From NCBI GenBank assembly GCA_016935665.1, contig JAFGQN010000148.1, positions 69,384 to 133,383 of the forward strand: a stretch of DNA of 64,000 nucleotides. The letters run 5' to 3'. Shown piece by piece: positions 9,242 through 54,080 of the stretch. Source of the DNA: Deltaproteobacteria bacterium (GTDB taxonomy: Bacteria; Myxococcota_A; Polyangia; JAAYKL01). Position numbers and translations under genes: made by a program. Position 1 is the first letter of the stretch; the number at the start of each line of letters is the position of its first letter. The notes under the pieces were generated by a model. The model was given only the letters and a program-made list of their open reading frames with translations. It did not search any database and was not told the origin of the DNA.

Positions 9242-9313
9242 GCGGGATTAACTCAGCGGTAGAGTGTTAGCTTCCCAAGCTGAAAGTCGCGAGTTCGAAT
9301 CTCGTATCCCGCT
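9242..9313 (+). tRNA. tRNA-Gly (anticodon CCC)
   Basis: I folded a cloverleaf by hand: acceptor GCGGGAT/ATCCCGC, D-stem ACTC/GAGT, anticodon stem TTAGC/GCTGA with loop TTCCCAA (CCC at positions 34-36), and T-arm GCGAG-TTCGAAT-CTCGT. CCA is not encoded. Confidence 0.8.
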
Positions 9314-9321
9314 CACATAAA

Positions 9322-25094: not shown

Positions 25095-25595
25095 CACCAG
25101 AATTTTAAAGAGAATAGCATCAGAAAATGTGACTACTTTGGGAGAATCAATTTCAGATAAAGTACATGCCTTGACGTTGAGCAAAACGGCCCATCTGCCC
25201 GGCTGTGGTTTCCAGATAACCACCATGTTGGGAAAAGGGTTTGGTGAATAGCGGGATATGAAGATATTGTGTAGCGCCTTCCAATTCAATAACGGAATTC
25301 CAAAAAATTGGCAGGAGGTTTCCATGCGCCCTGAGCCAATCGATTCGCTCTTTGCCTCGACTTACCAGAAACGGTTTTATTTGCTTCTGCAGTACAGTAT
25401 CCCCCCCGACCCAAACGCCACATTCCCATTGTTTAAAGACCAGGAGTTCGCCACTATTTAAAACAACACCAATTTTGTGGATTTGTAGTACGATAGAGCC
25501 TTAACAGAAAGGTGGTCCGCCGTCTGGTGGATATAACACCTCGGTATATGAAAAAAATCGTCCATGGCACTCTCAGGTGTACGCGTAAAGGAGCA

Positions 25596-27602
25596 ACGAT
25601 GAAATACCTGGCACTACTGTCATTTAATCTTATCTGGCTTGTCGGATGTTCACAGAACAATTCCAATACATCTGCAAGCGACGGGGACACCGACAGCGAT
25701 ACGGATACGGATTCAGATACGGACTCGGATGCGGACTCAGATACGGACACAGATTCGGATGCCGACACCGACACCGATTCGGACTCCGACGCCGATACGG
25801 ACTCGGACGCCGATTCGGACACCGACACCGATTCGAACACCGACAGCGATACGGATACCATACCCGTGGACACGTCGGCACTGGCGTCGTGCAGAGGGCT
25901 TGTCGCGGTCCCCGATTCGGGCGGCGTGTATGTGGGTTGGCGCTTCAAAGCCACCGACCCCACCGATCTTGCGTTCAACGTGTATCGCGATGGGACAAAA
26001 GTGAACAGCGAGCCGCTTTCGGGAGCAACCAATATTCTGGACGCCGACGGCAGCGCCGGGGACAGTTACACGATTCGTCCGGTTCTTGACGGAGAAGAAC
26101 AGGAGGCATCCCCTGCCAAAAAAGCGCTTACCCAAACGTATGTGCGCATTCCTCTGGCACCGGGCACCACCCAGGCGGGTCGTCTGGTGGGGACGGCAGA
26201 CTTGAACGGCGATTGCGAATATGATTTTGTGGTCAAACGTTCCAACGATGACCAGGATGTCACCCAGACCGCCGACCAGAGTCCCGCCACGATTGAGGAA
26301 ACCATCAAGCTGGAAGCGTACACTCACGATGGCAAATTTCTATGGCGACGGGATCTTGGATACAACGTGGAGACCGGCGTCTGGTTCTCGCCATTCTTTG
26401 TGTATGACCTCAATGGCGATGGCAAGGCGGAAATCGCGCTCAAGGCCAGTGAAGTGGGGGAGGATCTCGAAGGCGGCGAAGGTGATTTGAACAACGATGG
26501 CCAAACCGACTATCGCGCCGACAACGGCGAAGTATATATGCATCAGTATCCCGATATTGAGTTTCTCGAAGTGTGGGATGGTGAAACCGGCATCACCATT
26601 GCTCGAACGCCGTGGATTAGTGTGACGCCCTGGGGCTCCGATGGCTATCGATACGGGAGGAACATGATTGCGCCCGCCTATCTGGATGGCAACGATGGCA
26701 ATGCATCGATTATCGCCATGCGCGGCGGCAACACTCGCACAATAATTGAAGCGTTTGACCTGGTGGGCGATGAGCTGGTCCGCAGATGGGATGCCACCCG
26801 CTCTCCCAACGGTGGCAATTACGGCCACAACGTGCGCATTGGCGACATTGACGATGACGGTAAACAGGAGCTGCTCTACTTTACAGTGGCATTCGACGAC
26901 AACGGTGACGAACTGTGGAACACGCAGCAGGCCCACGGGGATCGCTTTTATCTGACTGACATCAATCCCGACCGTCCCGGGATGGAACTGTTTTATGTGC
27001 ACGAGTTTTCGGATGTGTACGACAGCCCCATTGACCTTCGCGCTGCCGAAAGCGGCGAAAAGCTGTGGGGGCCTGGGGGCGACTGGGGCGATGTGGGACG
27101 CGGTCTTGCGGCCAATATCGATGCCGACAGCCCCGGCTACGAGATGTGGGCCAGCGGCAGCGATGACCTGTACAGTTCAACCGGAGAAGTCATCGGCAAA
27201 GCCCCGAACGCCAACAACATGTCTATCTGGTGGGACAGCGATTTGGAGCACGAACATCTGGACGGCACATCCATCACCAAACCAGGGGGACAGGTGAACG
27301 CCCCCAACACTCAGGGATGCCGGCCCGGCAATCGCAACGCGCCCATGGGGTCGGGCGATGTATTGGGTGATTGGCGCGAAGAAGTGTGGTACATCTGTGA
27401 CAACAACAGCGAACTGCGCGTTTATACCACCACTGACGTCACCAATGTGCGGATGTACACGCCCATGCAGAATCCCGAATATCGCATGGGCGTGGCGGTT
27501 GAAACCCAGGGTTACATGCAGGCCCCTCAAACCGGCTTTTACGTTGGCAGCGACATGGCGCCCCCACCCGCGCCCTACATCCATATTCCCCCAGGCACCT
27601 GA
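25596..27602 (+). CDS. Secreted lipoprotein with a poly-(Asp-Thr/Ser) linker and a beta-propeller; probable rhamnogalacturonan lyase (PL11, YesW-like)
   Basis: An AGGAG SD precedes MKYLALLSFNLIWLVGCSQ (lipobox), then about 55 aa of D-T/D-S repeats. Repeated calcium-binding FG-GAP-like blades (YDLNGDGKAEIAL, GDIDDDGKQELLY, ADLNGDCEYDFVV) and the overall size match PL11 rhamnogalacturonan lyases. Confidence 0.5.
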   Translation, partial: TMKYLALLSFNLIWLVGCSQNNSNTSASDGDTDSDTDTDSDTDSDADSDTDTDSDADTDTDSDSDADTDSDADSDTDTDSNTDSDTDTIPVDTSALASCRGLVAVPDSGGVYVGWRFKATDPTDLAFNVYRDGTKVNSEPLSGATNILDADGSAGDSYTIRPVLDGEEQEASPAKKALTQTYVRIPLAPGTTQAGRLVGTADLNGDCEYDFVVKRSNDDQDVTQTADQSPATIEETIKLEAYTHDGKFLWRRDLGYNVETGVWFSPFFVYDLNGDGKAEIALKASEVGEDLEGGEGDLNNDGQTDYRADNGEVYMHQYPDIEFLEVWDGETGITIARTPWISVTPWGSDGYRYGRNMIAPAYLDGNDGNASIIAMRGGNTRTIIEAFDLVGDELVRRWDATRSPNGGNYGHNVRIGDIDDDGKQELLYFTVAFDDNGDELWNTQQAHGDRFYLTDINPDRPGMELFYVHEFSDVYDSPIDLRAAESGEKLWGPGGDWGDVGRGLAANIDADSPGYEMWASGSDDLYSSTGEVIGKAPNANNMSIWWDSDLEHEHLDGTSITKPGGQVNAPNTQGCRPGNRNAPMGSGDVLGDWREEVWYICDNNSELRVYTTTDVTNVRMYTPMQNPEYRMGVAVETQGYMQAPQTGFYVGSDMAPPPAPYIHIPPGT

Positions 27603-28994: not shown

Positions 28995-30767
28995 CTATTC
29001 AACAATAACAACCAGGGGTTCAGAAATGATTTCAAGGTTGAGGCCGCCGGGGTAGTAGTACGATGTGGCGTGACCAAAGCCCATTACCTGCAGTCCGACC
29101 GGCGCATCTGCTTCGAGGTAATGTTTGCCGTCGCCGGCGGGGCCTGATGTGAGGGGGACTCTATATATCAGCCATCCCGAGTTGTCGATGGGGGCGCCGG
29201 TGACGGTGAGGGCGGCGCCGTCCAGTTGGATTGTGGTGGTGCTTTGCGCCAATATGTCGATGTAATTCTGTTCGTACGAGATTGGGGCCAGAAATGAATA
29301 GTCCATTCTGAACTGTGCCGGGGTGACCATGGCTGAAACGCTCGGCTCTGTACCCGACATGTAGGATACAGCCATGAAGGGATGATTTTCATCCTGCGCG
29401 GTTACCGTAAACGGTGTGGTGCTTTCCACTTCGGCCACCTGCCCGGCATTAAGTGAAGTTGGCGCCCCCGTTGGGACTGTGGCGCCGTAGGTGAGCACCG
29501 TGCCGTCCACACTGCCCACCAGACGCACCCGGTGGGCGACCGCAACTCCTGTTGGACCGGTGGGCGGCGCAATCAGATAATGATGTCCCAGCGCTTCTGC
29601 CGGTAGAACCGATTCTTCCACGTGGTCGGCACTGGAACCGAATTCCAGAATGGGACTCAGGCCGATGACCTGAACGCTTTTGTAATTCAGATTCGCGTCA
29701 CTGCCGGGATTGGCGGCGTCCAGTCCCACCACCGCGCTGCCGGATAAATCCGCGTGGTCCATTCCGGATGCGCCCGCAGCGCCCAGCAGCTGGACCACAT
29801 CGCCCGCGTTCATGGTGTATTCCACCACTTCACCTGCAGCTGTGGCTGCAACGCCTGTGCCCGCAGCAATCCCGCCGGTGAGCTGGACGCGCACAAGCGT
29901 GTTGTCCTGTGTGGCGGTAATGGCAATTGCCCCTGGCGCATCGCCCCAGGCGCCGCCGTTTTCACCGCCGTAGGTAAACACGCGATAAGAGCCCGTCAGT
30001 GCCGTGCTCGGCAGCAGCAGCGAGGCATCGTTGGTGACCGAAAGACATTGCGTGGGCGTCTGGGTGGACGTCTCCATGCTGTCAATGCATCCGACCGGTT
30101 CCGGATCCAGCTGGTATTCCAGGGGACTGAACTGCCACACGGTAACGGGCGTGCTGCTGGTTAAATGATAGGCCCCGGCGTTCTGTCGCACCGACGCAGT
30201 TGCCCGGTCGCCCGATGTATTGGGATTGGTAAACTGAGTGCCTTTTAAACTTTCCACCCAGGGCAGCACAATGGCGCGCAATTCACCAGCAGGCACGGTT
30301 GTGGCAATGGGCTGCGTCAACGCACCGCCAGTGACCTGCACCGCGGCATCCTGACTGCGGTTGTTGGCCACCACCACTGCAAACTCAAAGCCTTCGCTGG
30401 TCTCATAATTGTACCAAACCTGGTTGTAGGTCACCGTCGGCCAAAAATCGCATCCCTCATAAGTGCGATGCTCGGCCGCCATCTCGCAGGTGAGCACATC
30501 CGAATCTGTCCCGGAATCTGTCGAACCAACAGTATTGGTGTCGTTGTTGTGCGATGGCGTATCCGTATCCTGGCCGGTGTCAGTTGCGGTATCCGCCGTA
30601 TCACCGGTGGCACTGTTTGACGAGGTATCCCCATTTAGCGTTGAGGTATCACCGTCACCTGATTTTCCCCCATCGGAATCGCTGCATCCGGCAACAGCCA
30701 TAACAGCCGCCATTACAACCAGAACGCCAGAAAGAAAACGGCTACGAAAATTCATTGTGCAAATCAT
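28995..30767 (-). CDS. Secreted lipoprotein with an acidic Ser/Thr/Asp-rich linker and a large beta-rich (possibly beta-helix) domain; function unknown
   Basis: An AGGAGG SD precedes MICTMNFRS...MAVAGCSDSDGGKSGDGDTS (lipobox), then a long Gly/Thr/Ala-rich repetitive beta sequence. There is no catalytic motif I can name. Confidence 0.5.
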   Translation of the reverse strand: MICTMNFRSRFLSGVLVVMAAVMAVAGCSDSDGGKSGDGDTSTLNGDTSSNSATGDTADTATDTGQDTDTPSHNNDTNTVGSTDSGTDSDVLTCEMAAEHRTYEGCDFWPTVTYNQVWYNYETSEGFEFAVVVANNRSQDAAVQVTGGALTQPIATTVPAGELRAIVLPWVESLKGTQFTNPNTSGDRATASVRQNAGAYHLTSSTPVTVWQFSPLEYQLDPEPVGCIDSMETSTQTPTQCLSVTNDASLLLPSTALTGSYRVFTYGGENGGAWGDAPGAIAITATQDNTLVRVQLTGGIAAGTGVAATAAGEVVEYTMNAGDVVQLLGAAGASGMDHADLSGSAVVGLDAANPGSDANLNYKSVQVIGLSPILEFGSSADHVEESVLPAEALGHHYLIAPPTGPTGVAVAHRVRLVGSVDGTVLTYGATVPTGAPTSLNAGQVAEVESTTPFTVTAQDENHPFMAVSYMSGTEPSVSAMVTPAQFRMDYSFLAPISYEQNYIDILAQSTTTIQLDGAALTVTGAPIDNSGWLIYRVPLTSGPAGDGKHYLEADAPVGLQVMGFGHATSYYYPGGLNLEIISEPLVVIVE

Positions 30768-31020
30768 GAACACCTCCTGTGTCATCTCGTTCAATGTGAT
30801 AACAGTATAAAGCTGTATGCTTATTTCGCCACCAGTTTATCTGGGATTGCATATGGGCGCAAATAAACATCGCTGAGGCAGTGCGCCGAAATCCGTCGTT
30901 TTGTGACAGTGTTTTGGGTGGTTTGTATGAGGGGGAAATGGGATTTCCATGGCGGGGAAGATTTAGGGATTAAATCTCCACCCCTTTTAAGGTGGGTCCT
31001 TGCCGCAAAAAAAAATCAGT

Positions 31021-32133
31021 TTACGGGAGGTAGTCCTTTATTGCCTTGTACCAGGTGTCCGCCATCCATTTGTAGCCAGTGTCATTGGGATGAACCTGCA
31101 TGGCATCCATCTGATTGGTGGGGAATCCGGTGAAGTGATCGACAAGGAATACGTGCTTCCCATTGGCCGCTTTCGCATCAACTATTCCTGGAATGGCGGC
31201 GTTAAAGGTATCGACGTCGGATGCCCGCATGGGAAGCGGTATGATTTGAGCAACAAATATATATGCATCCGGCACGTTTGAAATGATGTCATCAATCAAT
31301 TTGTCCAATCGCTGCGGCGCACCATTGGGATTGCCGTTCATGTCATTGGTGCCAATATGCAGCAATACGATATGCGGTGGGTCATCCATTGCCGGGCTTG
31401 GAAGCAGCCCATTTATCTGTTCTATTGTCCATCCGCTGTGGCCCTGATGATTTCGAGGAAATGCCTTTCCGTTGTAATCACCACTTCGTCCGTCTGCCTC
31501 ACCACCCACAAATGTGATATTCCTGCTGTCATCAACTGCGAGGCAAAACAGCGGGTAGCGATACCCATCGTTTTGACTCGAACTCATACCAAATGTAATG
31601 GAATCACCAAATGGAAGGATTTTACAGGGCGCGCCATCGGTCGGGCAAGGTCCATCGGAATCGCCATCGGAATCGCCATCCGTGTCCCCATCGGAATCGC
31701 CATCCGTGTCCCCATCGGAGTCGCCGTCGCTGTCACTGTCGCCGTCCGACCCCATATCGCAGCACATGTCGCCCGCATCAGCACCTTCGCAAAGGCCATC
31801 CACCTCAACCGCGCCATTGTATCTCGAGCAGTCGGAGTGGCACTCATTGGGCGCCTCGCACGGTGCAATGTCGCTGTCCGAATCGCTATCGCTGTCCGAA
31901 TCGGAATCCCCATCCGAGTCGGAATCGCCGTCGGTGTCCGAATCACCATCGGTATCTGAATCGCCGTCGGTGTCGCCGTCGGAGTCGCTGTCGCCATCCG
32001 AATCGCCATCGCTGTCACTGTCGGAATCGGCATCGGTATCTGATGTCGATTCACTGCCCCCGCATGCCGTCATTTGTACTACAATCAATGACAAACAAAT
32101 TGCCAGTAGATACCGCATAAAAAACGTATTCAT
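31021..32133 (-). CDS. SGNH/GDSL hydrolase lipoprotein (possible rhamnogalacturonan/carbohydrate acetylesterase) with two poly-(Asp-Ser/Gly) tracts flanking a Cys-rich module
   Basis: The lipobox VVQMTACGG is followed by about 60 aa of DSDGDSD repeats, a Cys-rich module (CEAPNECHSDCSRYNGAVEVDGLCEGADAGDMCCD), a second DSDGD tract, and then SGNH blocks (FGDSITFG ... GTND ... VHPNDTGY). Confidence 0.6.
   Translation of the reverse strand: MNTFFMRYLLAICLSLIVVQMTACGGSESTSDTDADSDSDSDGDSDGDSDSDGDTDGDSDTDGDSDTDGDSDSDGDSDSDSDSDSDSDIAPCEAPNECHSDCSRYNGAVEVDGLCEGADAGDMCCDMGSDGDSDSDGDSDGDTDGDSDGDTDGDSDGDSDGPCPTDGAPCKILPFGDSITFGMSSSQNDGYRYPLFCLAVDDSRNITFVGGEADGRSGDYNGKAFPRNHQGHSGWTIEQINGLLPSPAMDDPPHIVLLHIGTNDMNGNPNGAPQRLDKLIDDIISNVPDAYIFVAQIIPLPMRASDVDTFNAAIPGIVDAKAANGKHVFLVDHFTGFPTNQMDAMQVHPNDTGYKWMADTWYKAIKDYLP
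31665..31730. repeat. 24-bp tandem DNA repeat (x2.3) inside the acidic-linker coding region of 31021..32133
   Basis: catcggaatcgccatccgtgtccc occurs identically at 31665-31688 and 31689-31712, followed by a partial third copy. Confidence 0.85.
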
Positions 32134-32662
32134 TCCATCCTCCCGTGTTTTTTTTACACTTGCCGTTGGATAACCGAAATCAAGTAAGAGAGCCCCTCCA
32201 AATTACAACCTGGCTCAAAATAATATTTTTAATTGCTCTGAATACAGCTGTTTTCCTCAAAAGAAACAAAACAGATAAAAATATGATTGAATCACGCATT
32301 TTGAAGGTTCGAGTCAGTATTTTCTACATTCCACTCATCTGCAGTTTCCAGTGTTCCCGCTCCCAAAAGCGCCTGGCGCCAATACCGCTCACCGGCTGGT
32401 CTGCGAGTTTACTGGGGTTCAGGTCTGTGCCTGTTTTAACGACGTCACCGCCATTTTCAATTTCACTTCGGGCGCGTCGTTGAGCAGCATCTCGCGAAAG
32501 AGCGGCACTTTGTACACATAGTCATTGCCTTCTCTACCCCCAACAAAGTCTCGGGGTATTTCGAACATGTTGAAATCATTAGTGTTTGAAAAATAATCCA
32601 GAAATTTTGCAACAAAATCTCAAAACGGCCGAATAGAGGGGGCTCAATTGGAGGGAGCTCAC

Positions 32663-33628
32663 ATGAGAATGATTCGCTGGCATAACAGAGATTTTGTTCA
32701 TTTTATAACCAACAGAACGCAGCACGAGATGTTCTTTTTGCTGCCTACGCCCAAAATCAACAGCCTCATACTGTTTTGGCTGACCAGGGCCAAACAGAAA
32801 AAGGGGCAGCATATTGAACTGTTTTCATTTGTGTTTATGGCCAACCATTATCACATGCTTTTACGTGACCCCATGGGGGAGCTGCCGGAATTCATCGGAT
32901 ATTTTCAGGGGAATCTCGCCAAAGCAGTAAATAAGGAAATTGGACGTCGCGGTACGTTTTGGAGTCGGGAATATGATGATGTGATTGTGGATGGCGAGGA
33001 AGCATTCATTAATCGGTTTCAGTATATCGCAGCCAATCCCGTAGTTGCCGGTCTGGTGGAGACGCCCGCGGATTGGGGCGGAGTCAGCTCCGTTCCCTTC
33101 GCTCTTTCGCAACGCCCTGTGGAGGGAAAGGGCTTGAATGTGACAGATTACGGGAACGCCACCCGTCATAACCGCGAAGCCAATGAAAAAGACTTTGAGG
33201 AGAGTTACGAATTTCTGCTATCTGCATTGCCAATGCTGGCTGAAAAATCCGACGCCGAGCTACAGGAATTCCTGCGTTCTGCAATTGACACAGCCCCTCA
33301 AAGCGTAAACAAACAACTGCCAGATGGCCCGCCCATGGGCATGAAGAAAATCATGATGCAGTCTCCACTCGATAGCCCCAGCGCACCAGCTGGCAGTCCG
33401 CGGTTCAAATTTTTAACGCATTGCAAAGAACGAAAAAAAGAACTGATTGGATTATATCGGGAATTTGTATCTCAATACCGAAAGTGTACACAGGTGCTGA
33501 TGGCGTATTTTTGTAAAGCACCTGCTGCATTTGCCAGTTCAATGAAAAAAATTACAGGGAAGGCGCCCATAATCATTTGGCCGCCGGGATGCTACGTGCC
33601 ATCGAGACATGAGCCAATTGCAGAGTAA
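32663..33628 (+). mobile_element. REP-associated tyrosine transposase (RAYT; IS200/IS605-like Y1 HUH transposase) with a long C-terminal extension
   Basis: A GGAGGG SD precedes MRMIRWHN.... The HUH motif (MANHYHML), GTFWSREYDDVIV and the RAYT signature YIAANPVVAGLVETPADWGGVSS (compare YIHLNPVRAGLVEHPEDYPWSS) are present. About 170 extra C-terminal residues have no match. Confidence 0.8.
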
Positions 33629-44024: not shown

Positions 44025-44861
44025 ATGACGACCTGGAATAAGAAAAAATTATTGAAATCCGTATTTATCTGCGCATTGGCGTTACTATCTCTGCTGTTGG
44101 TGTGTTGTGGCGCTGGGCCGGAAGATGGTGAGAGCAGTGGGGATTCCGACAGTGATGGAGACGGGGATGGCGACGGCGACGGTGATGTAGACCAGATTGA
44201 AGAAGTTGGCGATTTAGAGGGCAGAACATTCGTGTTGGATGAAATTGAGATTACCAAGTGGATGTCACCCGCGGGGCTCGGAAAAGAGTTGGGATCATCT
44301 GTTCCGCCCATGGCGTTTCAAATTACAAGTGCGAAGGATGGCAAACTGACCGCATTGCTCGGAATTGTTGACGGTGACAAGCAGGACAAATGCAATCCGA
44401 CTGTGGAGATGACAGGAACCATCGATGAAGATCCCGATTTTGGCGATAAAGTAAAATTCGAATTAGGTCCCAAAGATTTCGAGGCCATTTTAACCTACCC
44501 GGGACCAGAACCTGGCGATGACGATTTAGTTGTGGTGGCCACTATTCGCGATTTGCAATTAGTTGGTTACCTCAAGGAAGGCGCAACGATCTACGAAGGC
44601 GAAGGGCGAGAATATAATCTTATCGCCACTGTGGATTTCAGGCATATTGCACATCTGTTTTCCGGACAGGTCGACGACCCGGATGGGGATAATCTATGTG
44701 AACAGATGAGTGACCTTTATTCTGGTGTGAAGTGTGAAGCATGTCCCGATGATGATGAGGAGTATTGCGTCACTCTCAAAGGCGCCCAGATCTCAGCAAC
44801 AGCCGTGGCTGGCCTTGACATTAAAGAGGTTGACAAGGTTGGCGACGGGTGTGTGGAATAG
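44025..44861 (+). CDS. Acidic lipoprotein of unknown function (poly-Asp-Gly/Ser linker)
   Basis: Signal/lipobox LSLLLVCCGAG, then [20 protein letters not shown]. The remainder is very acidic with paired Cys and no known motif. Confidence 0.5.
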   Translation: MTTWNKKKLLKSVFICALALLSLLLVCCGAGPEDGESSGDSDSDGDGDGDGDGDVDQIEEVGDLEGRTFVLDEIEITKWMSPAGLGKELGSSVPPMAFQITSAKDGKLTALLGIVDGDKQDKCNPTVEMTGTIDEDPDFGDKVKFELGPKDFEAILTYPGPEPGDDDLVVVATIRDLQLVGYLKEGATIYEGEGREYNLIATVDFRHIAHLFSGQVDDPDGDNLCEQMSDLYSGVKCEACPDDDEEYCVTLKGAQISATAVAGLDIKEVDKVGDGCVE

Positions 44862-45980: not shown

Positions 45981-47480
45981 ATGATGAGTTGTAAATGCGA
46001 TATCTTTCCTCAGCGGTTTCCAGGGGGCTTCACGAGCGCGGTTCTGGTTGTAATCGGATGTGCCATTGCTTCATCTGGATTTGCCGGAGGAATTTCGGTT
46101 GGGGATCAGGGCGCTGTGGCTGCGGGACGGAGCGGCGCTTTTGTGGCAAAGGCCGATGACCCTTCTGCCATTGAATACAATCCGGCGGGTTTGACGGGGC
46201 TAAAAGGGTGGAACATTTATCTTTCAAATCGGTTTGCATACGCCAGCGAGCGGTATAAACGAGCGACCATTTGGGACTATGATAACGCCGAAATCCATCC
46301 TTTTGGAGAAGTATCCAATCAGAAACCGTGGCAGCTGTTGGGGCCCATGCTGGCGTTAACAACGGATTTTGGATTAAAGGACTGGTCGTTTGCAATTGGC
46401 GCTTATGCACCCGCCGGAATCTCGTCTCAGGAGTTTCCCAGGGACGGCGGACAGCGATACATGCTAACATATCGCGACACAAAAATTCTCTACTATAATG
46501 CAAGTGTCGCCTGGAAACTCAGCGATGTTTTTGGGGTTGGGCTGAGCCTTCAGTGGGTGGATTTGGCTCAGCTGGATTTGCGCCTCGCTGTAAATGGCGA
46601 CGTAAACCCGGCCGCTGTTTCACCCATCTCCCATTTTTTTGATATGGAAGCACGTGTACAAGGAGCGGATCACATCGGCGTGTCGGGAATATTGGGAATG
46701 TGGTACCGTCCATCGCCATCGTTTCAAATGGCATTTTCCAGCCGATTTATCCCCACAAAACTTGAAGCCGATGCCACATTAACATTGGTACCTCTGGATG
46801 AAGACAATAATGGTTCTGTTTCAACACAGAGAAATGGCACGTCGGCCAATGATGTTGTGTTTTCGATGACGTTGCCAATGGAATTTCGCGCTGGGTTTCG
46901 TTACATTCATTTGCGCGGCCAGCAGGAGCTATTTGATGTGGAACTGGATTTTCGGTATGAGCTTTGGTCGCAGATGGAAAGCTATCGGGTAGACGGCACC
47001 GGAATGTCTGCATCAATTGACGGGATTTCAGAGCCGGTGTCAGTGGGGTTGATAGTGGTTCCGAAGAATTGGAAAAATACATTCAGTGTTCGTTTGGGGG
47101 GTGATTTTAATGCCATTGAGAATCGTTTGAAGTTGCGCGCAGGAACGTTTTGGGAAACGGCCGCCGCTCCAAACGAATACGCGTATGTGGATTTTTTGGC
47201 ATCCACCCGAATCGGTGCAAGCTTGGGGGCATCAGTGATTTTGGGGAAATTTGAAATGGCGCTCTCGTATACATACGTGATTGAGGTACCCGTCAAGGTG
47301 CATGAGACGGACGGGAAGATATATCAACAGGTTCCAGGAAGTCGCTGTAAAGGACCCGACTACGACGATCCCACTTTCTGCGATGCGAATTATCAGGGAC
47401 AGCCGTCTGCGACTGTAAATGGCGGTACATATACAAACACTTATCATTTCACATCACTGGCATTGTCCTACAGGTTTTAA
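45981..47480 (+). CDS. FadL/TodX-family outer-membrane hydrophobic-compound transport protein
   Basis: The N-terminal hatch motif GRSGAFVAKADDPSAIEYNPAGL (compare FadL [23 protein letters not shown]) and the C-terminal ...SLALSYRF (aromatic terminal residue of a beta-barrel) are present. Confidence 0.7.
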   Translation: MMSCKCDIFPQRFPGGFTSAVLVVIGCAIASSGFAGGISVGDQGAVAAGRSGAFVAKADDPSAIEYNPAGLTGLKGWNIYLSNRFAYASERYKRATIWDYDNAEIHPFGEVSNQKPWQLLGPMLALTTDFGLKDWSFAIGAYAPAGISSQEFPRDGGQRYMLTYRDTKILYYNASVAWKLSDVFGVGLSLQWVDLAQLDLRLAVNGDVNPAAVSPISHFFDMEARVQGADHIGVSGILGMWYRPSPSFQMAFSSRFIPTKLEADATLTLVPLDEDNNGSVSTQRNGTSANDVVFSMTLPMEFRAGFRYIHLRGQQELFDVELDFRYELWSQMESYRVDGTGMSASIDGISEPVSVGLIVVPKNWKNTFSVRLGGDFNAIENRLKLRAGTFWETAAAPNEYAYVDFLASTRIGASLGASVILGKFEMALSYTYVIEVPVKVHETDGKIYQQVPGSRCKGPDYDDPTFCDANYQGQPSATVNGGTYTNTYHFTSLALSYRF

Positions 47481-47491
47481 TGGATTTGGAA

Positions 47492-49144
47492 ATGAAACGG
47501 ATTTTGAAATATTTATTGTGTACACAGATTCTGGCTTTTGTCCCTGCAGGTGTAACGGCAGGCGTATTCGATGAGGCGGTATCTGGCGGTGATGTCAGTA
47601 CCACATCTGACTCTGCTTCATTTGAAGACACTGCGACGTCCGAATCCGATGCCGAATCCGATGTCGGGGACGATAGCCCTGTTGTTGTGGCAAGTCCGTT
47701 GCAATTTGATTTCAACGGATATGTCAGAGGCGATGTGTTTGCTGGAAAGATGCCGGGCTATTCTCAGACAGAATTAAAAAACGGGTATGGCGAACTCGCT
47801 TTAAAATTGCGTGTTTCAAAAGGATCCTACGGGGATGCTTTTGGGGAAGTCCGTTTCAAAGGCGGCTACCTCAACGATGGCCATTATCTGGGACAACCAT
47901 CAGATGTGGATGCATACGGACAACCCACCCAGGTGGACAGCGCCTCCGAAGATGCCGGGGAAATGGGCGCATCTGTGCAATTGAGAGAAGCCTACGTAAA
48001 CGCATATTTCGGTCGACTGGAAGTGCGTTTGGGACATCAGATTGTGCTTTGGGGACGTGCGGATGGCATTAACCCAACGAACAACATCACGCCCATCGAT
48101 ATACGGGTACGCTCCCCCGAAGAGGACGAACGTCGCCTCGCCAACACAGGTCTGCGCATCAAGCTCGATTTGTCGCCGCTGCGTATCGAAGGCATTTGGA
48201 TGCCATTTTACGCACCGTCCGTGGTGCCTCAAATTATTCTTGGGGACGCCTTGCGATTTGCAGAGCCGGATTATCCGGATTTGGATTTGACCAATGGACT
48301 ATTTGCCGGGAAGATTCACCTCATTTTTCCGGCGATTGAAATGTCTGTCTCTTATTTGAATGGATATTCTTTGACTCCCGGCATCAGATATGTGAAAAAC
48401 AATTTTTCAGCTGAATACTATGACGAAGTTTACGATTCGATTCTGAACCGGACCAAAACAGTGTCACTGAATCGAACTGCTTTTCGGCATCAGGTGATTG
48501 GCTTCGATTTTTCAACCACTTTGGGAAGTTTTATGGGCCTTCGCGGTGAAGTGGCGTTTCGCTACCCTGAAAAGCAGAATGAAGAGACGTTGAAACGGCT
48601 TCATATCCCCAATCCCGAGTTGCATTACGTTTTGGGTGTGGATAAGGAGTTTGGGAATCTTATGGTTGTCGCTCAATATATTGGGCGGTATGTCCTGAAT
48701 TGGAAAGACCTGCCCAAAGCCCGTGACTTTCAAGATGATGACATCGAAGACAGGATAGACGCTCTGAACGCCAAACCTGAGTTTGAAAACCTGGAAGAAA
48801 CAGTTGACTTTAACATTCATGAAGAACTTGTAAACTACGTGGCCAATAGAGAGTTGGTAAAAATCAACCACATGATCCACAACCAGAATTATGAAATTCA
48901 GCACGGCGTTTCGCTGCGATTGAGTTATTCGGCTCTGCACGACACACTCACGCTGGTGGCTTTTGGGATGTTGAATTTCACAACGCAGGAATATGTTTTT
49001 TATCCAAAAATACAATACAAACTCACAGATGCCATGGAGCTCTCGTTGGGAGCAGAGCTTTACTTTGGACCAGAGGAATCGCTGTTTGGAATGATCGATG
49101 AAACCATGAGCGCCGGATATACGGAATTGAAGATATCTTTTTAA
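47492..49144 (+). CDS. Putative outer-membrane beta-barrel protein (DUF1302-like?) adjacent to the MMPL transporter
   Basis: A signal peptide (MKRILKYLLCTQILAFVPAGVTAG), alternating amphipathic beta-strands and a C-terminal ...ELKISF. Alternative ATG at 47480 overlaps the FadL stop. Confidence 0.45.
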   Translation: MKRILKYLLCTQILAFVPAGVTAGVFDEAVSGGDVSTTSDSASFEDTATSESDAESDVGDDSPVVVASPLQFDFNGYVRGDVFAGKMPGYSQTELKNGYGELALKLRVSKGSYGDAFGEVRFKGGYLNDGHYLGQPSDVDAYGQPTQVDSASEDAGEMGASVQLREAYVNAYFGRLEVRLGHQIVLWGRADGINPTNNITPIDIRVRSPEEDERRLANTGLRIKLDLSPLRIEGIWMPFYAPSVVPQIILGDALRFAEPDYPDLDLTNGLFAGKIHLIFPAIEMSVSYLNGYSLTPGIRYVKNNFSAEYYDEVYDSILNRTKTVSLNRTAFRHQVIGFDFSTTLGSFMGLRGEVAFRYPEKQNEETLKRLHIPNPELHYVLGVDKEFGNLMVVAQYIGRYVLNWKDLPKARDFQDDDIEDRIDALNAKPEFENLEETVDFNIHEELVNYVANRELVKINHMIHNQNYEIQHGVSLRLSYSALHDTLTLVAFGMLNFTTQEYVFYPKIQYKLTDAMELSLGAELYFGPEESLFGMIDETMSAGYTELKISF

Positions 49145-49156
49145 GGGGAAACTCGA

Positions 49157-51469
49157 ATGAAGAATAATACTAAACTCGCCGACATTGTAATCAAGTATCC
49201 CTGGCCGTTCATTCTGATTTTTGTTGCTGCAACTGTGTTGGCGGCATACCAGTTGCCGAGGGTGGAACTCGACACGGAGATGAAAAACCAACTGCCGGTC
49301 GATTTGCCCACCCGAAAGAATCTGACAAAAATTGAGAAACTGTTCGGTGGCACAGACATGATCATGATCGTTTTGTCCGCTGACGATATCCTGGATGCGG
49401 CGGTGGCGAAACGCGTAAAGGAGATGTCGAAAAAATTTACGCGCATCAAAGAGTTTGACCGGGTGATCAGTCTTTTTACCGCAAAATCCATTAGCGCGGA
49501 ATATGGCGAGTTAATGGTCGAGCAGTCGGTGCCTCGCATTCCAAAAACAGAGAAATCCCGCGAAAAATTACGTGAGAAGCTGAAGAAAAACGAGTTGGTC
49601 TATGGCAATATTGTGTCCAAAGACTTCAAACATACGGTTCTGATTGGTTTTTTGGCGACGGACGCATCTGACGAAGTTGTTGTTTCGAAGCTCGAAGAAA
49701 TCATCGCCCAAACCCCTGGCCCCGGAAAAGCGCTGATTGGCGGAATGCCGATGACGCGTGTAAAACTTTCAAAGGACATCCGAAAAGACATGTCTCGATT
49801 TCTTCCGGTGGGGCTGGTTCTGATGTTCATCTTTCTCTGGGCATGTTTCCGCGAGGGCCGAAGCGTTTTGATGCCATTTGTTATGACAGTCATGGCAATC
49901 GCCATAGCTTTGGGGTTGCTCTCATTCCTTGGGTGGAAAATACACACGGTTACTGTGTTGCTTCCAGTTATTCTGCTGGCTGTTGCTAATGATTACGGCA
50001 TCCATATCATGGCCCACTATCAATCCGATAAAGCGAGGCATATCGGTTGGTCTTCAAAACAACTGGCGCATTCCGCTATCGCCAGTTTGAATCAGCCCAT
50101 TCTTGCAAGTGGCATAACCACTATTGTTGGATTATTGTGTCTGTTGTCTCATATCATTATACCAGCGGAACAATTGGGCGTTCTCGCAGCAATCGGCGTG
50201 GCATTTGCTGTTGTTGGCAGCCTTGTATTTATACCGGCAGTCATCGCTGTACTTCCGAAACCCAAATTTAAAATTTCAAAAAAAGACAAAGGCCGCGACG
50301 TATCAACCGCGATGACACGACTTCTCGAATTCATGGGAAACAGCGTCGTCAGGAAACCAGGGGCCATTTTAGTTTCCACAGTGGTATTGATGCTCACATT
50401 CGCAGTCGGTTCTTTTTTCATCGTTGTGGACAGCAATCCGATGAGTTTCTACAAGAAAAACGACCCCATCTGGCAGGCAACCAACATGCTGAACAAACAT
50501 TTTGGCGGTTGGGCCGGCATTTCCATTGTTGCAGAAGGTGATATTAAAGATCCCAAAATAATGAAGGAAATTGATGCACTGGAAAAACATTTGAAAAAGC
50601 ACCCGCTGGTGGGAACAACGTCTTCTATCGCAGCTGTGGTTCGAGGAATTAATCAGGTGATGAACGAAGACAACCCTAAAGAAAACCGAGTTCCAGATAC
50701 GAAACAGCTGATTGCTCAATATTTTCTGTTGTATTCATTGAGTGGAGACATTGACGATTTCGATAAGATGGTCGACTTCAAGTATCGACATGCGCAAATC
50801 ATGGCACAGGTCAAAGATAGCGGGACAGCAGCCGCAACGGATGTTGTGGCGTATACGCGCCAATACATAGAATCCCGACCCGGTTCTCCTTTTCGTATGA
50901 TTGGCGGTTTGCTGGATGTCATCACCAATATGGTGGATTATATTGTTCGGGGGCAACTTCTGAGTCTGTTTCTCTCCATCCTGTTATGTGGTGTACTTGT
51001 TGCAATCCTTATGCGATCTCTGATTGCCGGATTAATTGCAATGGTCCCATTAGGTATCGCAGTTTCCATTCTATTTGGGTTAATGGGATTTTTGGGAATA
51101 GAATTGAATCTAATTACAGCAATGCTGTCTTCTATCATGATCGGTGTCGGAATTGACTACACAATCCATTTTCTATGGCGATATCGCGATGAAAGGAAGA
51201 CGGCGATGCCTGCAGAAGCAGTAAAATCGACATTGCACTCCGCTGGACGGGGGATTTTGTTCAATGGATTCTCTGTGGTGGTTGGCTTTGTTGTTTTACT
51301 ATTGTCCCAATTTTTCCCAGTTCAGTTTTTCGGCCTGTTGGTAGTAGTCTCGATTCTATCCTGTTTGGTGGGAGCTCTTGTTATATTGCCAGCGGTCGTC
51401 ATTGTGTTTAAACCGAGGTTCCTGGAACCCAAAAAAAGCGAATTTGAATCAGCAGAAGAGGCGGCTTAA
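49157..51469 (+). CDS. MMPL/RND-superfamily exporter (two 6-TM sterol-sensing-like bundles; HpnN-like lipid exporter family)
   Basis: 770 aa. TM1 is followed by a periplasmic domain and a TM2-6 bundle (ILLAVANDYGIHIMAHY), then a duplicated second half (MLSSIMIGVGIDYTIHFLWRY). This is typical MMPL topology. Confidence 0.7.
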   Translation: MKNNTKLADIVIKYPWPFILIFVAATVLAAYQLPRVELDTEMKNQLPVDLPTRKNLTKIEKLFGGTDMIMIVLSADDILDAAVAKRVKEMSKKFTRIKEFDRVISLFTAKSISAEYGELMVEQSVPRIPKTEKSREKLREKLKKNELVYGNIVSKDFKHTVLIGFLATDASDEVVVSKLEEIIAQTPGPGKALIGGMPMTRVKLSKDIRKDMSRFLPVGLVLMFIFLWACFREGRSVLMPFVMTVMAIAIALGLLSFLGWKIHTVTVLLPVILLAVANDYGIHIMAHYQSDKARHIGWSSKQLAHSAIASLNQPILASGITTIVGLLCLLSHIIIPAEQLGVLAAIGVAFAVVGSLVFIPAVIAVLPKPKFKISKKDKGRDVSTAMTRLLEFMGNSVVRKPGAILVSTVVLMLTFAVGSFFIVVDSNPMSFYKKNDPIWQATNMLNKHFGGWAGISIVAEGDIKDPKIMKEIDALEKHLKKHPLVGTTSSIAAVVRGINQVMNEDNPKENRVPDTKQLIAQYFLLYSLSGDIDDFDKMVDFKYRHAQIMAQVKDSGTAAATDVVAYTRQYIESRPGSPFRMIGGLLDVITNMVDYIVRGQLLSLFLSILLCGVLVAILMRSLIAGLIAMVPLGIAVSILFGLMGFLGIELNLITAMLSSIMIGVGIDYTIHFLWRYRDERKTAMPAEAVKSTLHSAGRGILFNGFSVVVGFVVLLLSQFFPVQFFGLLVVVSILSCLVGALVILPAVVIVFKPRFLEPKKSEFESAEEAA

Positions 51470-51508
51470 TCATGAGTCATCTCTGCGATTCCGGTAAGGA
51501 GGAAAAAA

Positions 51509-52333
51509 ATGAAAGGTAAACTTTTAGCTACTCCCAAAATAGTCACCGTGGCCATAACTGTCGGATTGATAACATCGGTTTATTTGAGCAGCGGTATAAG
51601 CGCCGATTTGTCGGGAATGGACATTATGCAAAAAGCCAATGCCGCTCGTCAGTTGAATGGCTCCGAAGCGGTGATGACGCTTACAATCAAAAATTCAAAA
51701 GGGGAAAAAAGAGTTCGAAAAATTGCCACCGTTACCAAACTTTTTGACAAAGGAAAAACCGAAAAACGAGTTTATCGTTTTCTGTCACCTGCGGATGTAA
51801 AAGGAACCGGCGTATTGACCTTTGACTACGAAACAAAGGGCGACGATATGTGGATTTATCTGCCTGCATTGCGAAAAACCCGTCGTATCGTTACTTCTGA
51901 AAGAGCAAAAAGTTTTATGGGAAGTGAGTTCTCATATGCAGATATGAACACGCCAACTTTGTCGGACTACAAATTCAAAGTGCTTAAAGACGAGAGTGTT
52001 GATGGTGCAAAATGCTGGAAAATTGAAGTTATGCCCAAAAATGACAAAGTGGCTGAAGACGAAGGATATTCCAAAAAATATGTTTGGGTGGCGCAAAATG
52101 AATTCACCATTCGAAAAGCAGAATATTTTGATCTTGATGGCGAACTCCTGAAGATGCTTCACAGCAAGAATATCGAGCTTGTAGACAAAGCACAGAAGCG
52201 ATATCGTTCCAAATATATGGAAATGACAAACAAGCAGAATGGTCGCCAATCCATTTTCGAAATAGAAAAGATTGAAAATGTACCTGACACCAAGGATTCT
52301 TATTTCACTACAAGCTATTTAGAACGCCCTTAA
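51509..52333 (+). CDS. LolA-like outer-membrane lipoprotein-sorting-family protein (frequent partner of MMPL exporters)
   Basis: A signal peptide, then DMWIYLPALRKTRRIVTSERAKSFMGSEFSYADM, which matches the conserved core of the LolA-like family. Confidence 0.6.
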   Translation: MKGKLLATPKIVTVAITVGLITSVYLSSGISADLSGMDIMQKANAARQLNGSEAVMTLTIKNSKGEKRVRKIATVTKLFDKGKTEKRVYRFLSPADVKGTGVLTFDYETKGDDMWIYLPALRKTRRIVTSERAKSFMGSEFSYADMNTPTLSDYKFKVLKDESVDGAKCWKIEVMPKNDKVAEDEGYSKKYVWVAQNEFTIRKAEYFDLDGELLKMLHSKNIELVDKAQKRYRSKYMEMTNKQNGRQSIFEIEKIENVPDTKDSYFTTSYLERP

Positions 52334-52403: not shown

Positions 52404-54080
52404 ATGAACAAGTCTTTATTCCTTTTAATCTGGCTGAGTGCGGTTCTTGCCATGGCTCACTTGTCAGGTTGTGGTGGAGATGACGGTGCGATATCCTCTG
52501 ACGGCGATAGCGACTCGGATAGCGACGGCGATTCGGATGGGGACTCGGATAGCGACAGTGATGCCGATAGCGATTCTGACTCCGACAGCGATAGCGATTC
52601 GGATAGTGATGGCGATAGCGATTCGGACGGTGATGGCGATGATTGTGAGTATACGTGTAGCAATCATTGCGCGTCCATTAACGGAATTCCCATGTCTGGA
52701 GAATGCCCGGGGGAACAGAAATGTTGTGATCTCGGTGATTCTGATGCGGATTCTGACTCCGATGGCGATTCTGATTCAGACGGTGATTCTGATTCTGATT
52801 CTGACTCTGATGGCGACAGTGACGGCGATGCAGAGGGGGATTTCGTTATCGACAAATCAACGTCCAGCAAAATTCCAACTGTCGGTATTGTGAAATGGTC
52901 TCTGGAAGGTGTCAGCAAAATCGACGAGGCGACAATTGAGTTTGGTCAGGATAATAAATATGGAATGGAAGCGCCGGTTGACCTGGAGGAAGCAAATTAT
53001 CGAACTGTGCTTTTAGGGATGAAATCAGAGACGGACTATCATTTTCGTATCGTGGCTAAAAGTGGCGGAAAAACCTATACCAGCTCAGATCAAACGCTGA
53101 AAACCGGTCCAACACTAAGTCTGGAAAAACCAAGAATTGATGTGAAACAAGCCGGCAAAACGAATGACGGGTTTCTTGTTCTTGCATCATACTCCGGTGG
53201 TATGGGTGGACAAAATCCCCAGGGACTTATTTTCGACAATGATGGTGATTTGGTTTGGTTTTATCAGGCAAAAACACTGGTCGACAGTACACGCGCCCGC
53301 TTGAGTTACGATGGCAAGTGGATGGCGGTCGTGCCTGTCAATAATGGCGGTAATGCCGGAAGTATTGCTCTGTGCTCAATTGATGGAGAAGAAACCAAGC
53401 AGTTTAATCTGACCGGCGCGGCTCATGATTTGACACCTACGGATGATAATACATTTGTATTTTTGGAGTATTCAGCCGGTGGTGGTGGCGGTATGATGGG
53501 GATGTCCAGTGCTTGCGCAAAGGCTGTTGAAGTTGATTTGGATGGAAAAACCAATCTGATTTTTGATTCTGCTCAGGTATGGACCAATGATTGTCATGGG
53601 AACGCATTGCGCTACTCGGAGGATGACGGTCTTTTCACCATGTCAGAGTATAATCACAACGAAATTGCCGCTTTTGATAAACAGGGAAAATTAAAATGGG
53701 TTACAAAAAATAATGGCCTCTGGCAGGCGCAGCATGGTCATCATCTTGTTGACGGCAACCATCTGTTGGTTTTCAATAACGGAGGAAATTTGGGGCAAAT
53801 GAATTCTACCAGCATAGCGTTGGAATTCACGGTGGATGGTAGTGGCAATCTCACAAAGGTTTTTGAATATTCGGTCAATGGTTTAGGAACACCGACTTTG
53901 GGAGATATACAGCGACTGCCGAATGGTAATACTCTGGTATCTTACAGCAACTCGGCAATTATTCACGAGGTGGATTCCAGCGGTAGTCTGGTCCGTAGCT
54001 GGGATTTTGGGAAGACAGCGTTTGGATATGTGGTCTGGCGTCCCACTCTCTATGGTCCACCAATCGATTTGAGCATGTAG
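52404..54080 (+). CDS. Lipoprotein with two poly-(Asp-Ser) tracts flanking a Cys-rich module, and a C-terminal beta-propeller resembling arylsulfotransferase (ASST)-family domains
   Basis: Lipobox MAHLSGCGG, then about 50 aa of DSDSDG repeats, [29 protein letters not shown], a second DSD tract, and a propeller with [22 protein letters not shown] (HH-D...NGN blocks as in ASST). Confidence 0.45.

Follow-up and report, generated by a model that had tools for sequence, protein, structure and literature searches.

A rare acidic six-cysteine module probably shuffled among lipoprotein tethers

A six-cysteine module in two lipoproteins

Two lipoproteins encoded in a 64,000-nucleotide stretch of contig JAFGQN010000148.1 from a Deltaproteobacteria bacterium (positions 69,384 to 133,383 of the forward strand, hereafter the window) carry a small module with six cysteine residues in the order C-C-C-C-CC, set between acidic repeats in the N-terminal tether of each protein. 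One of the hosts is an SGNH esterase (module M1) and the other is an arylsulfotransferase-like (ASST-like) protein (module M2), and we conclude that the module is very probably a genuine domain family that is shuffled among different proteins. A previous reading of this DNA (the sequence-only reading) had described a unit of roughly 30 amino acids (aa) in these two proteins, and most of what it said is borne out: both peptides that it quoted are present in the sequence, its naming of the two hosts agrees with Pfam (PF13472 for the esterase, PF05935 and PF14269 for the ASST-like protein), the unit is real at about 30–37 aa, and each module is bracketed by (D-S/G/T)n tracts, of 58 and 32 aa around M1 and 47 and 31 aa around M2. 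Its claim that the cysteine spacing is identical does not hold, however, since M1 is spaced C-x5-C-x3-C-x12-C-x8-CC and M2 C-x3-C-x3-C-x11-C-x5-CC; the intervals given as 'x2/4' and 'x5/6' were miscounts, and the two spacings are similar but not identical. A six-frame regular-expression scan of the window finds exactly two in-frame C..C..C..C..CC clusters, at 31759..31860 on the minus strand and 52644..52727 on the plus strand, and no third copy of the module is found in the window with the family hidden Markov model (HMM).

Further carriers and the rarity of the family

The sequence-only reading had proposed building an HMM from the two instances and looking for more. When a two-sequence profile (M1 plus M2) was used with HMMER to search 1.84 billion (1.84e9) representative proteins at E<=1e-3, five matches were found, three of which are true carriers that together contribute five further modules, and two of which are spurious. 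The true carriers are P0241 (E=1.9e-13), P0242 (2e-10) and P0245 (1.7e-6), described in Table 1; the genes for P0241 and P0242 are adjacent and convergent on a single 11.2-kb ENA contig (L002). P0243 was rejected as a eukaryotic repeat, judged from its sequence, as was P0244, a protein of mollusc source with 35 short N-terminal partial matches. Every copy of the module that was found lies behind a lipobox, within an acidic low-complexity linker, a point that the sequence-only reading had proposed to check.

The two modules of the window are not equally secure as members of this family. With a profile made from the outside sequences alone M1 reaches 64.6 bits, and judged by this score its match is clearly beyond chance. 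M2 scores 10.9–12.1 bits against outside-only profiles (P of about 1e-5 per comparison), and by sequence alone it must be called marginal, with the identical architectural context adding support; we regard it as a probable divergent member of the module family. The alternative is that there are two separate families, with M1 belonging to a rare GAVEVxGxC..CCDM family and M2 being a defensin-like insert that was acquired independently, the cysteine framework having converged in a similar linker context. The gap between 10.9 bits for M2 and 64.6 for M1 with the outside-only profile is consistent with this, as are a similarity to the AITD class of defensins that is seen in M2 alone (see below) and an identity between M1 and M2 of just 34–37 %, with three indels and no recent duplication at the DNA level. 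We nevertheless consider it unlikely, because M2 aligns with the module profile made without it (hhalign 87.6 %, E=3.5e-6) over 28 columns including CCDLG, the CCDxG segment, as against 21 columns (84 %) with the AITD profile, because its score against the module profile is attained by just 3–4 of 3000 shuffles in which the cysteines were fixed, because CE[YF]xC is common to M2 and the P0245 copies, and because the succession of lipobox, tract, module and a second tract of 31 or 32 aa is identical in the two window proteins.

Several further searches bear on how widespread the module is. A word-indexed search with the two-module alignment gave no candidate sharing three 5-mers, the module being too short for this method, and a search of metagenome contigs with a five-module alignment gave 44 pattern matches, none of which was confirmed by tblastn. 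A degenerate DNA pattern for the core GA[VI][EQ][VA]xGxCx[GA]..CCD gave two matches in 185,579 species-representative genomes, both of them chance occurrences with in-frame stops, and none in the JGI metagenome contigs; this pattern requires a GGC glycine codon and a core of the M1/P0245 type, and the absence is thus partial evidence. Because the DNA pattern found nothing real in either collection, we regard the family as very rare; it is unnamed and appears confined to relatives of Polyangia-like Myxococcota. None of the families in Pfam, NCBIfam or the PDB sequence searches reaches threshold with the module, in agreement with the sequence-only reading, which could not match it to a named family.

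Two observations concern the proteins encoded by contig L002. P0241 (gene at L002 1262..2512) contains a second, different six-cysteine region at aa 64–108, upstream of its module, PECAVDETRCEGTLIQQCSEGQWRDFNDCAIDGMQCGVRQGTAICY, which resembles the fungal Bubble protein family weakly and below threshold (PF09227, E=0.022). The segment L002 4529..10008 on the minus strand encodes an nSTAND1 NTPase of 1320 aa that contains WD40 repeats and, after it, a protein of 506 aa that matches TIR_2 faintly; the two look like an NLR-like pair.

Behaviour as a cassette

Orthologue searches with the two host enzymes, from which the repeats had been removed, gave 240 proteins (120 SGNH and 120 ASST-like) from Polyangia, Sorangium and 'Deltaproteobacteria' metagenome-assembled genomes, with best identities of 59 % and 65 %, the latter for the ASST-like protein. 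The module is present in none of the 120 SGNH and none of the 120 ASST-like orthologues, and it therefore behaves as a shuffled cassette, as the sequence-only reading had suggested. It is found on at least four different backbones, one of them with three copies in tandem, and the C-terminal domains of the carriers differ, being CE3-like SGNH, ASST-like, CE15 and, in P0241, a domain without a Pfam or PDB match. The cassette would consist of an acidic tract, the module and a second acidic tract of about 31 aa, moved as a unit between exported lipoproteins of different kinds and placed in their N-terminal tethers. M1 has 68–71 % identity with its counterparts in P0241 and P0242, modules that are from another organism and on other backbones; M1 and M2 are in the same genome, and a recent duplication giving rise to the pair was rejected, as their DNA cannot be aligned beyond the codon level. 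The M1-type modules have dN/dS values of 0.15–0.24, with dS near or beyond saturation, and these copies are under purifying selection.

The tethers of the orthologues offer a further view of the site that the module occupies. None of 104 SGNH orthologue tethers, which are rich in Gly, Ser and Ala, has a cysteine-rich insert (at least four cysteines). Among 79 ASST-like orthologues there are eight with at least four tether cysteines, and in six of these the cysteines belong to recognisable but unrelated small cysteine-rich modules, the other two having no recognisable module. Those at the tether position of M2 are of two kinds, a Stig1/MXAN_6577-like type (P0129 and P0154) and a six-cysteine CGNGxI[DE]PGE[DQ]C.. 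type (P0131, P0134, P0136 and P0143), the second of which has no NCBIfam match. The closest ASST-like orthologue, P0121, at 65 % identity, has a tether that is short and lacks both the repeats and the module; its gene lies at 1623..3023 of a Logan contig (L007) from SRR13394437, the same sequencing run as that of the organism of the window, and related lineages therefore co-occur in the sample.

Composition and predicted fold

The six cysteines, three glycines and the aspartate after the CC pair are invariant in an alignment of the seven modules, which range from about 31 to 41 residues in length and have a conserved core of G-A-[VI]-E-[VA]-x-G-x-C-x-G...C-C-D-[MLT]. All seven are anionic, with net charges of −3 to −9 and at most two basic residues, and each has one or two aromatic residues, the positions of which are not conserved. 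The six cysteines would be expected to form three disulfides after export. An AlphaFold2 (AF2) model of M1 made with the seven-sequence alignment has a pLDDT of 89.9 and a pTM of 0.63, with strands at residues 10–12 (containing the second cysteine, C2), 22–24 (V-E-V) and 36–39 (M-C-C-D), and two 3-residue helical turns, one of them at residues 15–17; with two sequences only the pLDDT is 54.7 and the model is unusable. The larger alignment thus gives a confident fold prediction, and the module would be an autonomously folding, disulfide-locked, strongly acidic mini-domain. A Foldseek search gave no matches in the PDB and one meaningless match in BFVD. Between the subtypes C2 moves by two residues (spacings of 5,3 and 3,5) at a constant distance between C1 and C3, a shift that would fit a C2 placed on a strand and not in a CxxxC helix.

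The host lipoproteins

The layout common to both window proteins consists of a lipobox, a long acidic tract, the module, a shorter acidic tract and the enzyme (Table 1). When their N-termini are read against the pattern L-[ASTVI]-[GAS]-C, the ASST-like protein has a canonical lipobox (HLSGC) and the SGNH protein has QMTAC, with an atypical methionine at −3. The esterase domain is a good match to PF13472 (E=1.2e-14, 55.6 bits against a cut-off of 32.9), has the GDS catalytic block as ..ILPFGDSITFG.., and has 2vpt as its closest solved relative (E=5e-28), followed by the acetyl esterases 5b5s and 5b5l; 2vpt is a C. thermocellum CE3 esterase, and all three structures are of CE3 carbohydrate esterases. 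The ASST-like protein matches PF05935 (E=2.6e-9), PF14269 (E=5e-8) and, weakly, fn3 (E=0.035). The first acidic tract of the SGNH protein matches only the low-complexity SD-repeat regions of MSCRAMM models, far under their cut-offs. Tethers of D-x-D repeats are present in five lipoproteins of the window, of which only two have the module.

Several open reading frames (ORFs) of 84–200 aa overlap with the DNA of the acidic tracts, in alternative frames and on the opposite strand, within 31357..32173 and 52438..52918 (for example 31357..31959, 31598..32173 and 52438..52893, all on the plus strand). They were rejected as genes, having repetitive translations (SPSESPS.., RNRHRNRH..) that are by-products of the GAY-AGY/TCN repeat DNA.

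Table 1. Features of the two module-bearing lipoproteins (window coordinates) and of the three further carriers
Feature	Coordinates	Strand	Description	Basis
SGNH lipoprotein	31021..32133	−	370 aa + stop	ORF translation
SGNH lipoprotein, signal peptide and lipobox-like Cys	32062..32133	−	MNTFFMRYLLAICLSLIVVQMTAC	sequence pattern only, from translation
SGNH lipoprotein, acidic tract 1	31870..32043	−	58 aa of (D-S/G/T) repeats, aa 31–88	
Module M1	31750..31860	−	aa 92–128, CEAPNECHSDCSRYNGAVEVDGLCEGADAGDMCCDMG, spacing 5,3,12,8,0, net charge −8	
SGNH lipoprotein, acidic tract 2	31654..31749	−	32 aa, aa 129–160	
SGNH/GDSL esterase domain	31021..31653	−	CE3-like, aa 161–370 + stop	PF13472, 2vpt match
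ASST-like lipoprotein	52404..54080	+	558 aa	ORF translation
ASST-like lipoprotein, signal peptide and canonical lipobox	52404..52472	+	..AHLSGC	translation
ASST-like lipoprotein, acidic tract 1	52497..52637	+	47 aa of (D-S/G/A) repeats, aa 32–78	
Module M2	52644..52736	+	aa 81–111, spacing 3,3,11,5,0, net charge −3, divergent	
ASST-like lipoprotein, acidic tract 2	52737..52829	+	31 aa, aa 112–142	
Weak fn3-like segment, then ASST-like domain	52830..54080	+		Pfam
P0241			416-aa lipoprotein, module WCEAPLECHHDCSRYNGAIQVPGLCEGDDASDMCCDMS	
P0242			601-aa probable lipoprotein, D-S/D-T tracts on both sides of module, CE15 glucuronoyl esterase	PF22244, E=1.9e-64
P0245			160-aa fragment, three tandem modules joined by VDT repeats	

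Possible roles of the module

A role in binding or anchoring (to carbohydrate or metal, or as a sorting tag) was suggested in the sequence-only reading. We tentatively propose that the module is an accessory unit for binding or targeting, carried on a tether that is flexible and polyanionic, and that from there it would hold surface-exposed polysaccharide-active enzymes (CE3-like, CE15) on their substrate or on a cell-surface partner, by analogy with small carbohydrate-binding modules (CBMs) or dockerin-type modules in other carbohydrate-active enzymes (CAZymes). The carriers include two types of xylan-side-chain esterase, CE3-like and CE15, the three tandem copies in P0245 are of a kind often seen in CBMs and dockerin-type modules, and 3.4 kb from the SGNH gene lies a gene for a PL11 rhamnogalacturonan lyase, a lipoprotein whose acidic tether is of a similar kind. 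There are also several observations that tell against a binding role. Known small CBMs use aromatic platforms and no conserved platform of this sort is present in the module; at −3 to −9 it is so negatively charged that anionic glucuronoxylan or pectin would be repelled, save where Ca2+ forms a bridge; and the conserved residues other than cysteine (Gly, alternating Val/Ile, Met) look structural and not ligand-contacting. Moreover, the ASST-like protein does not count among the recognised CAZymes, the C-terminal domain of P0241 has no match, and the unrelated cysteine-rich modules in the same tether slot fit a generic structural role equally well.

Such a structural role, in which the module would bind no ligand and would simply be a protease-resistant disulfide knot or rigid spacer that breaks up a disordered polyanionic tether and so affects its reach, stiffness or degradation, seems to us somewhat unlikely. 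It would account for a conservation that falls mostly on structural residues (the six cysteines, three glycines and alternating hydrophobics), for the lack of a conserved aromatic surface, for the occurrence of other cysteine-rich modules at this position in some ASST-like orthologues, and for the near-constant 31–32 aa of the second tract in both window proteins in spite of the low identity of their modules. Yet three of the five window lipoproteins with acidic tethers have no module, and the lack of any cysteine-rich insert in the 104 SGNH orthologue tethers indicates that tethers do not as a rule require a knot; purifying selection reaches surface positions (the Glu after C1, the Glu in strand 2 and the Asp-Met after the CC), and the tandem copies of P0245 suggest avidity over spacing. 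The same conserved acidic sites (the Glu after C1, the Glu in strand 2 and the Asp after the CC), the 4–10 Asp or Glu residues per 31–41 and the Asp-rich repeats on either flank could instead point to a node for Ca2+ or other metals, in which the module and the (D-x)n tracts would chelate divalent cations and stiffen the tether or bridge it to anionic polymers or lipopolysaccharide. This is very doubtful, since no known family of Ca2+-binding motifs is matched, TSP3, EF-hand and dockerin included, and the acidity may be a compositional drift shared with the linker.

A rather different proposal sees in the module an effector or inhibitor of defensin type, derived from the cis-defensins of myxobacteria and either displayed on the lipoprotein or freed from it by proteolysis, that would act against competitors or prey (for example by binding cell-wall precursors) or inhibit an enzyme. 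In its favour is the similarity of M2 to the AITD cis-defensin profile, for which hhalign gives 84 % (E=7.5e-6, 21 columns) and HMMER 13.0 bits, a score attained by none of 3000 Cys-fixed shuffles; the reference alignment was validated against the PDB entries for micasin, MGD-1, eurocin, plectasin and sapecin. The closest relatives of the host enzymes are from Polyangia, and among bacteria the cis-defensins are known almost only from myxobacteria and actinobacteria (PMC11561630, PMC8819291). We nonetheless think this explanation improbable. Among bacterial defensins 80 % are cationic (PMC8819291), whereas every copy of the module is strongly anionic; all seven end in CC in place of the CxC of cis-defensins; and CxxxC is lost in the three copies of P0245, where C2 and C3 are spaced C-x5-C. 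The signal is confined to M2, as the M1-type/P0245-type profile gives an hhalign probability of 0.2 % against AITD and Cys-fixed shuffle tests that are not significant; the AF2 model, a prediction for M1 only, has no helix of at least four residues, where cis-defensins have an alpha-helix that carries CxxxC and is tied to the last strand; and the module is internal to enzymes, without evident processing sites, and is not a stand-alone precursor of 30–130 aa.

A previously unnamed family of mini-domains joins the repertoire of small disulfide-rich extracellular modules, and in uncultured Myxococcota such cassettes are exchanged, along with polyanionic linkers, between plant-polysaccharide-attacking enzymes that are lipoproteins of the cell surface. 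Should the module bind a substrate or partner, as we tentatively propose, it would be among the smallest bacterial targeting modules known and would offer a compact, acid-stable scaffold. Its general importance is limited by its extreme rarity, with just three other carriers in so large a set of representative proteins.

Neighbouring genes

The 696-aa protein encoded at 25512..27602 on the plus strand has rhamnogalacturonan lyase family 11 domains (PF21348, E=1.3e-105, and PF18370) and an N-terminal (D-T/S-D/A) acidic tract without a cysteine module. Tethers of D-S/D-M/D-G repeats, again without the module and on proteins with no recognisable domain, are encoded at 54410..55579, where there is a lipobox-like ..GIGCG, and at 44025..44861, both on the plus strand, and a Thr/Asp/Ser-rich tether is present in a 599-aa probable lipoprotein (28995..30794, minus strand) with an IgGFc-binding domain (PF17517, E=5.7e-53). 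A 326-aa ORF at 32648..33628 on the plus strand, divergent from the SGNH lipoprotein gene and about 0.5 kb from its start, encodes an IS200-like Y1 transposase (PF01797, E=7.5e-6, above the cut-off). Directly upstream of the ASST-like gene, and co-directional with it, is a cluster (45981..52333, plus strand) encoding a FadL/TodX-like outer-membrane protein, a DUF1302 protein, an MMPL/RND-type transporter and a LolA-like protein, the order of which recurs on a Logan contig from SRR13394437. The sole RNA gene detected in the window is a tRNA-Gly(CCC) at 9242..9314 on the plus strand.

Comparison with known systems

In an unbiased PDB search with the family profile, crambin ranks first (E=0.031, 17.6 bits, aligned segment CSRYNGAIQVPGLCEGDDA). 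A circularly permuted crambin scores 22–25 bits, its N-terminal CC then lying eight residues after C40, as in the M1-type modules; in the same test viscotoxin and phoratoxin score 5–9 bits and the purothionins about 0, M1 gives no signal with a permuted-thionin profile, and none of the modules has a Pfam thionin match (PF00321). The permuted-thionin idea was kept as a lead but not adopted, the native thionin order CC-C-C-C-C being reversed or permuted in the module and the similarity below significance and largely specific to crambin; the match would need a circular permutation, the loss of helix 1 and one moved cysteine, and thionins are plant proteins. The WAP four-disulfide core (PF00095) was likewise rejected, having eight cysteines rather than six and matching M2 at 15.5 bits over 11 residues, under its cut-off of 20.8.

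CBM1, CBM10/fungal dockerin and hevein-type CBM18 domains are disulfide-stabilised, lie between low-complexity linkers on polysaccharide-active enzymes and are sometimes present in tandem. In size, disulfides, linker setting and tandem occurrence the module resembles them, a likeness of architecture only: the cysteine patterns differ, the module is strongly acidic and has no conserved aromatic face, and none of the seven modules has a match at E<=10 to the small CBM and dockerin families of Pfam. The Stig1/MXAN_6577-like and CGNGxIxPGExC modules of the ASST-like orthologues resemble M2 in lying between lipobox or linker and catalytic domain, but are unrelated in sequence and cysteine pattern and have linkers rich in Gly, Ser and Thr, not Asp.

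The defensin-like character of the cysteine framework was overlooked in the sequence-only reading. Two classes, the cis- and trans-defensins, have been defined (PMC11561630), and the cysteines of the former follow the pattern C-x(2,18)-C-x3-C-x(2,12)-C-x(4,17)-C-x-C (PMC11561630), with which M1 and M2 agree as far as the fourth cysteine. Like the module, the cis-defensins plectasin, micasin and MGD-1 have six cysteines and a GxC gamma-core motif, and they have C-x-N-H-C-x-S-I-x-G...G-x-C in common with M2; the AITD match of M2 covers the region of the helix and gamma-core of the fungal and invertebrate proteins, which reads CHNHCKSIKG..GYC in plectasin. By hhalign, M2 appears about as close to these cis-defensins (84 %) as to the module profile (88 %), a link that is sub-threshold. 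M2 alone has no match in a PDB sequence search, and Pfam AtDEF-like reaches E=0.22 with the modules, under its cut-off. The taxonomic setting is also the same, as the bacterial defensins described to date are stand-alone cis-defensins, for the most part cationic, with myxobacteria and actinobacteria as their main sources (PMC11561630, PMC8819291). Those peptides are secreted on their own, whereas the module is anionic and lies within the tethers of enzymes.

The order of the cysteines is that of the beta-defensins. The canonical beta-defensin framework is C-x(4-8)-C-x(3-5)-C-x(9-13)-C-x(4-7)-CC, in which the terminal CC is a hallmark, and the module resembles it in the C-C-C-C-CC order, the terminal CC, similar loop lengths and a glycine at the second position ahead of C4. 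All seven modules have this order, the CC and the GxC at C4, and the loops that fall outside these ranges are loop 1 with three residues (M2 and P0245), loop 3 with 14 (the third P0245 copy, P0245c) and loop 4 with 8–10 (M1-type and P0245c). The three short strands predicted for M1, with C2 in strand 1 and the CC in strand 3, would be compatible with the beta-defensin fold, a three-stranded antiparallel sheet with C1-C5, C2-C4 and C3-C6 disulfides. There is no corresponding signal in the sequences: no module matches Pfam defensin_beta, hhalign gives less than 1 % for beta-defensins and at most 3.5 % for beta-, alpha- and plant defensins and thionins alike, and the score of M2 is attained by 340 of 3000 Cys-fixed shuffles, which is not significant; apart from those for the validated AITD set, the values obtained with the defensin and thionin reference alignments are leads only. 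Beta-defensins are cationic and the module is anionic.

All trans-defensins known to date are from animals (PMC11561630, PMC8819291), and a common origin of the cis and trans classes is debated (Zhou, Gao and Zhu 2019, as cited in PMC8819291). It is conceivable, though improbable in our judgement, that the module has a bacterial trans-defensin-type fold descended from the cis-defensins of myxobacteria, and that M2 survives as an intermediate, combining a CxxHCxSIxG..GxC core with a terminal CC. The similarities behind this suggestion are sub-threshold; such a fold would have three strands, the C-C-C-C-CC framework of beta-defensins and a CC strand from which two disulfides point in opposite ways. 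If the fold is indeed trans-defensin-like and derived from cis-defensins, it would bear on the origins of defensins, for which myxobacteria have already been proposed as the source of the eukaryotic cis-defensins, and would provide both the first example of a trans-type defensin fold from a non-animal source and direct sequence evidence on a common origin of the two classes.

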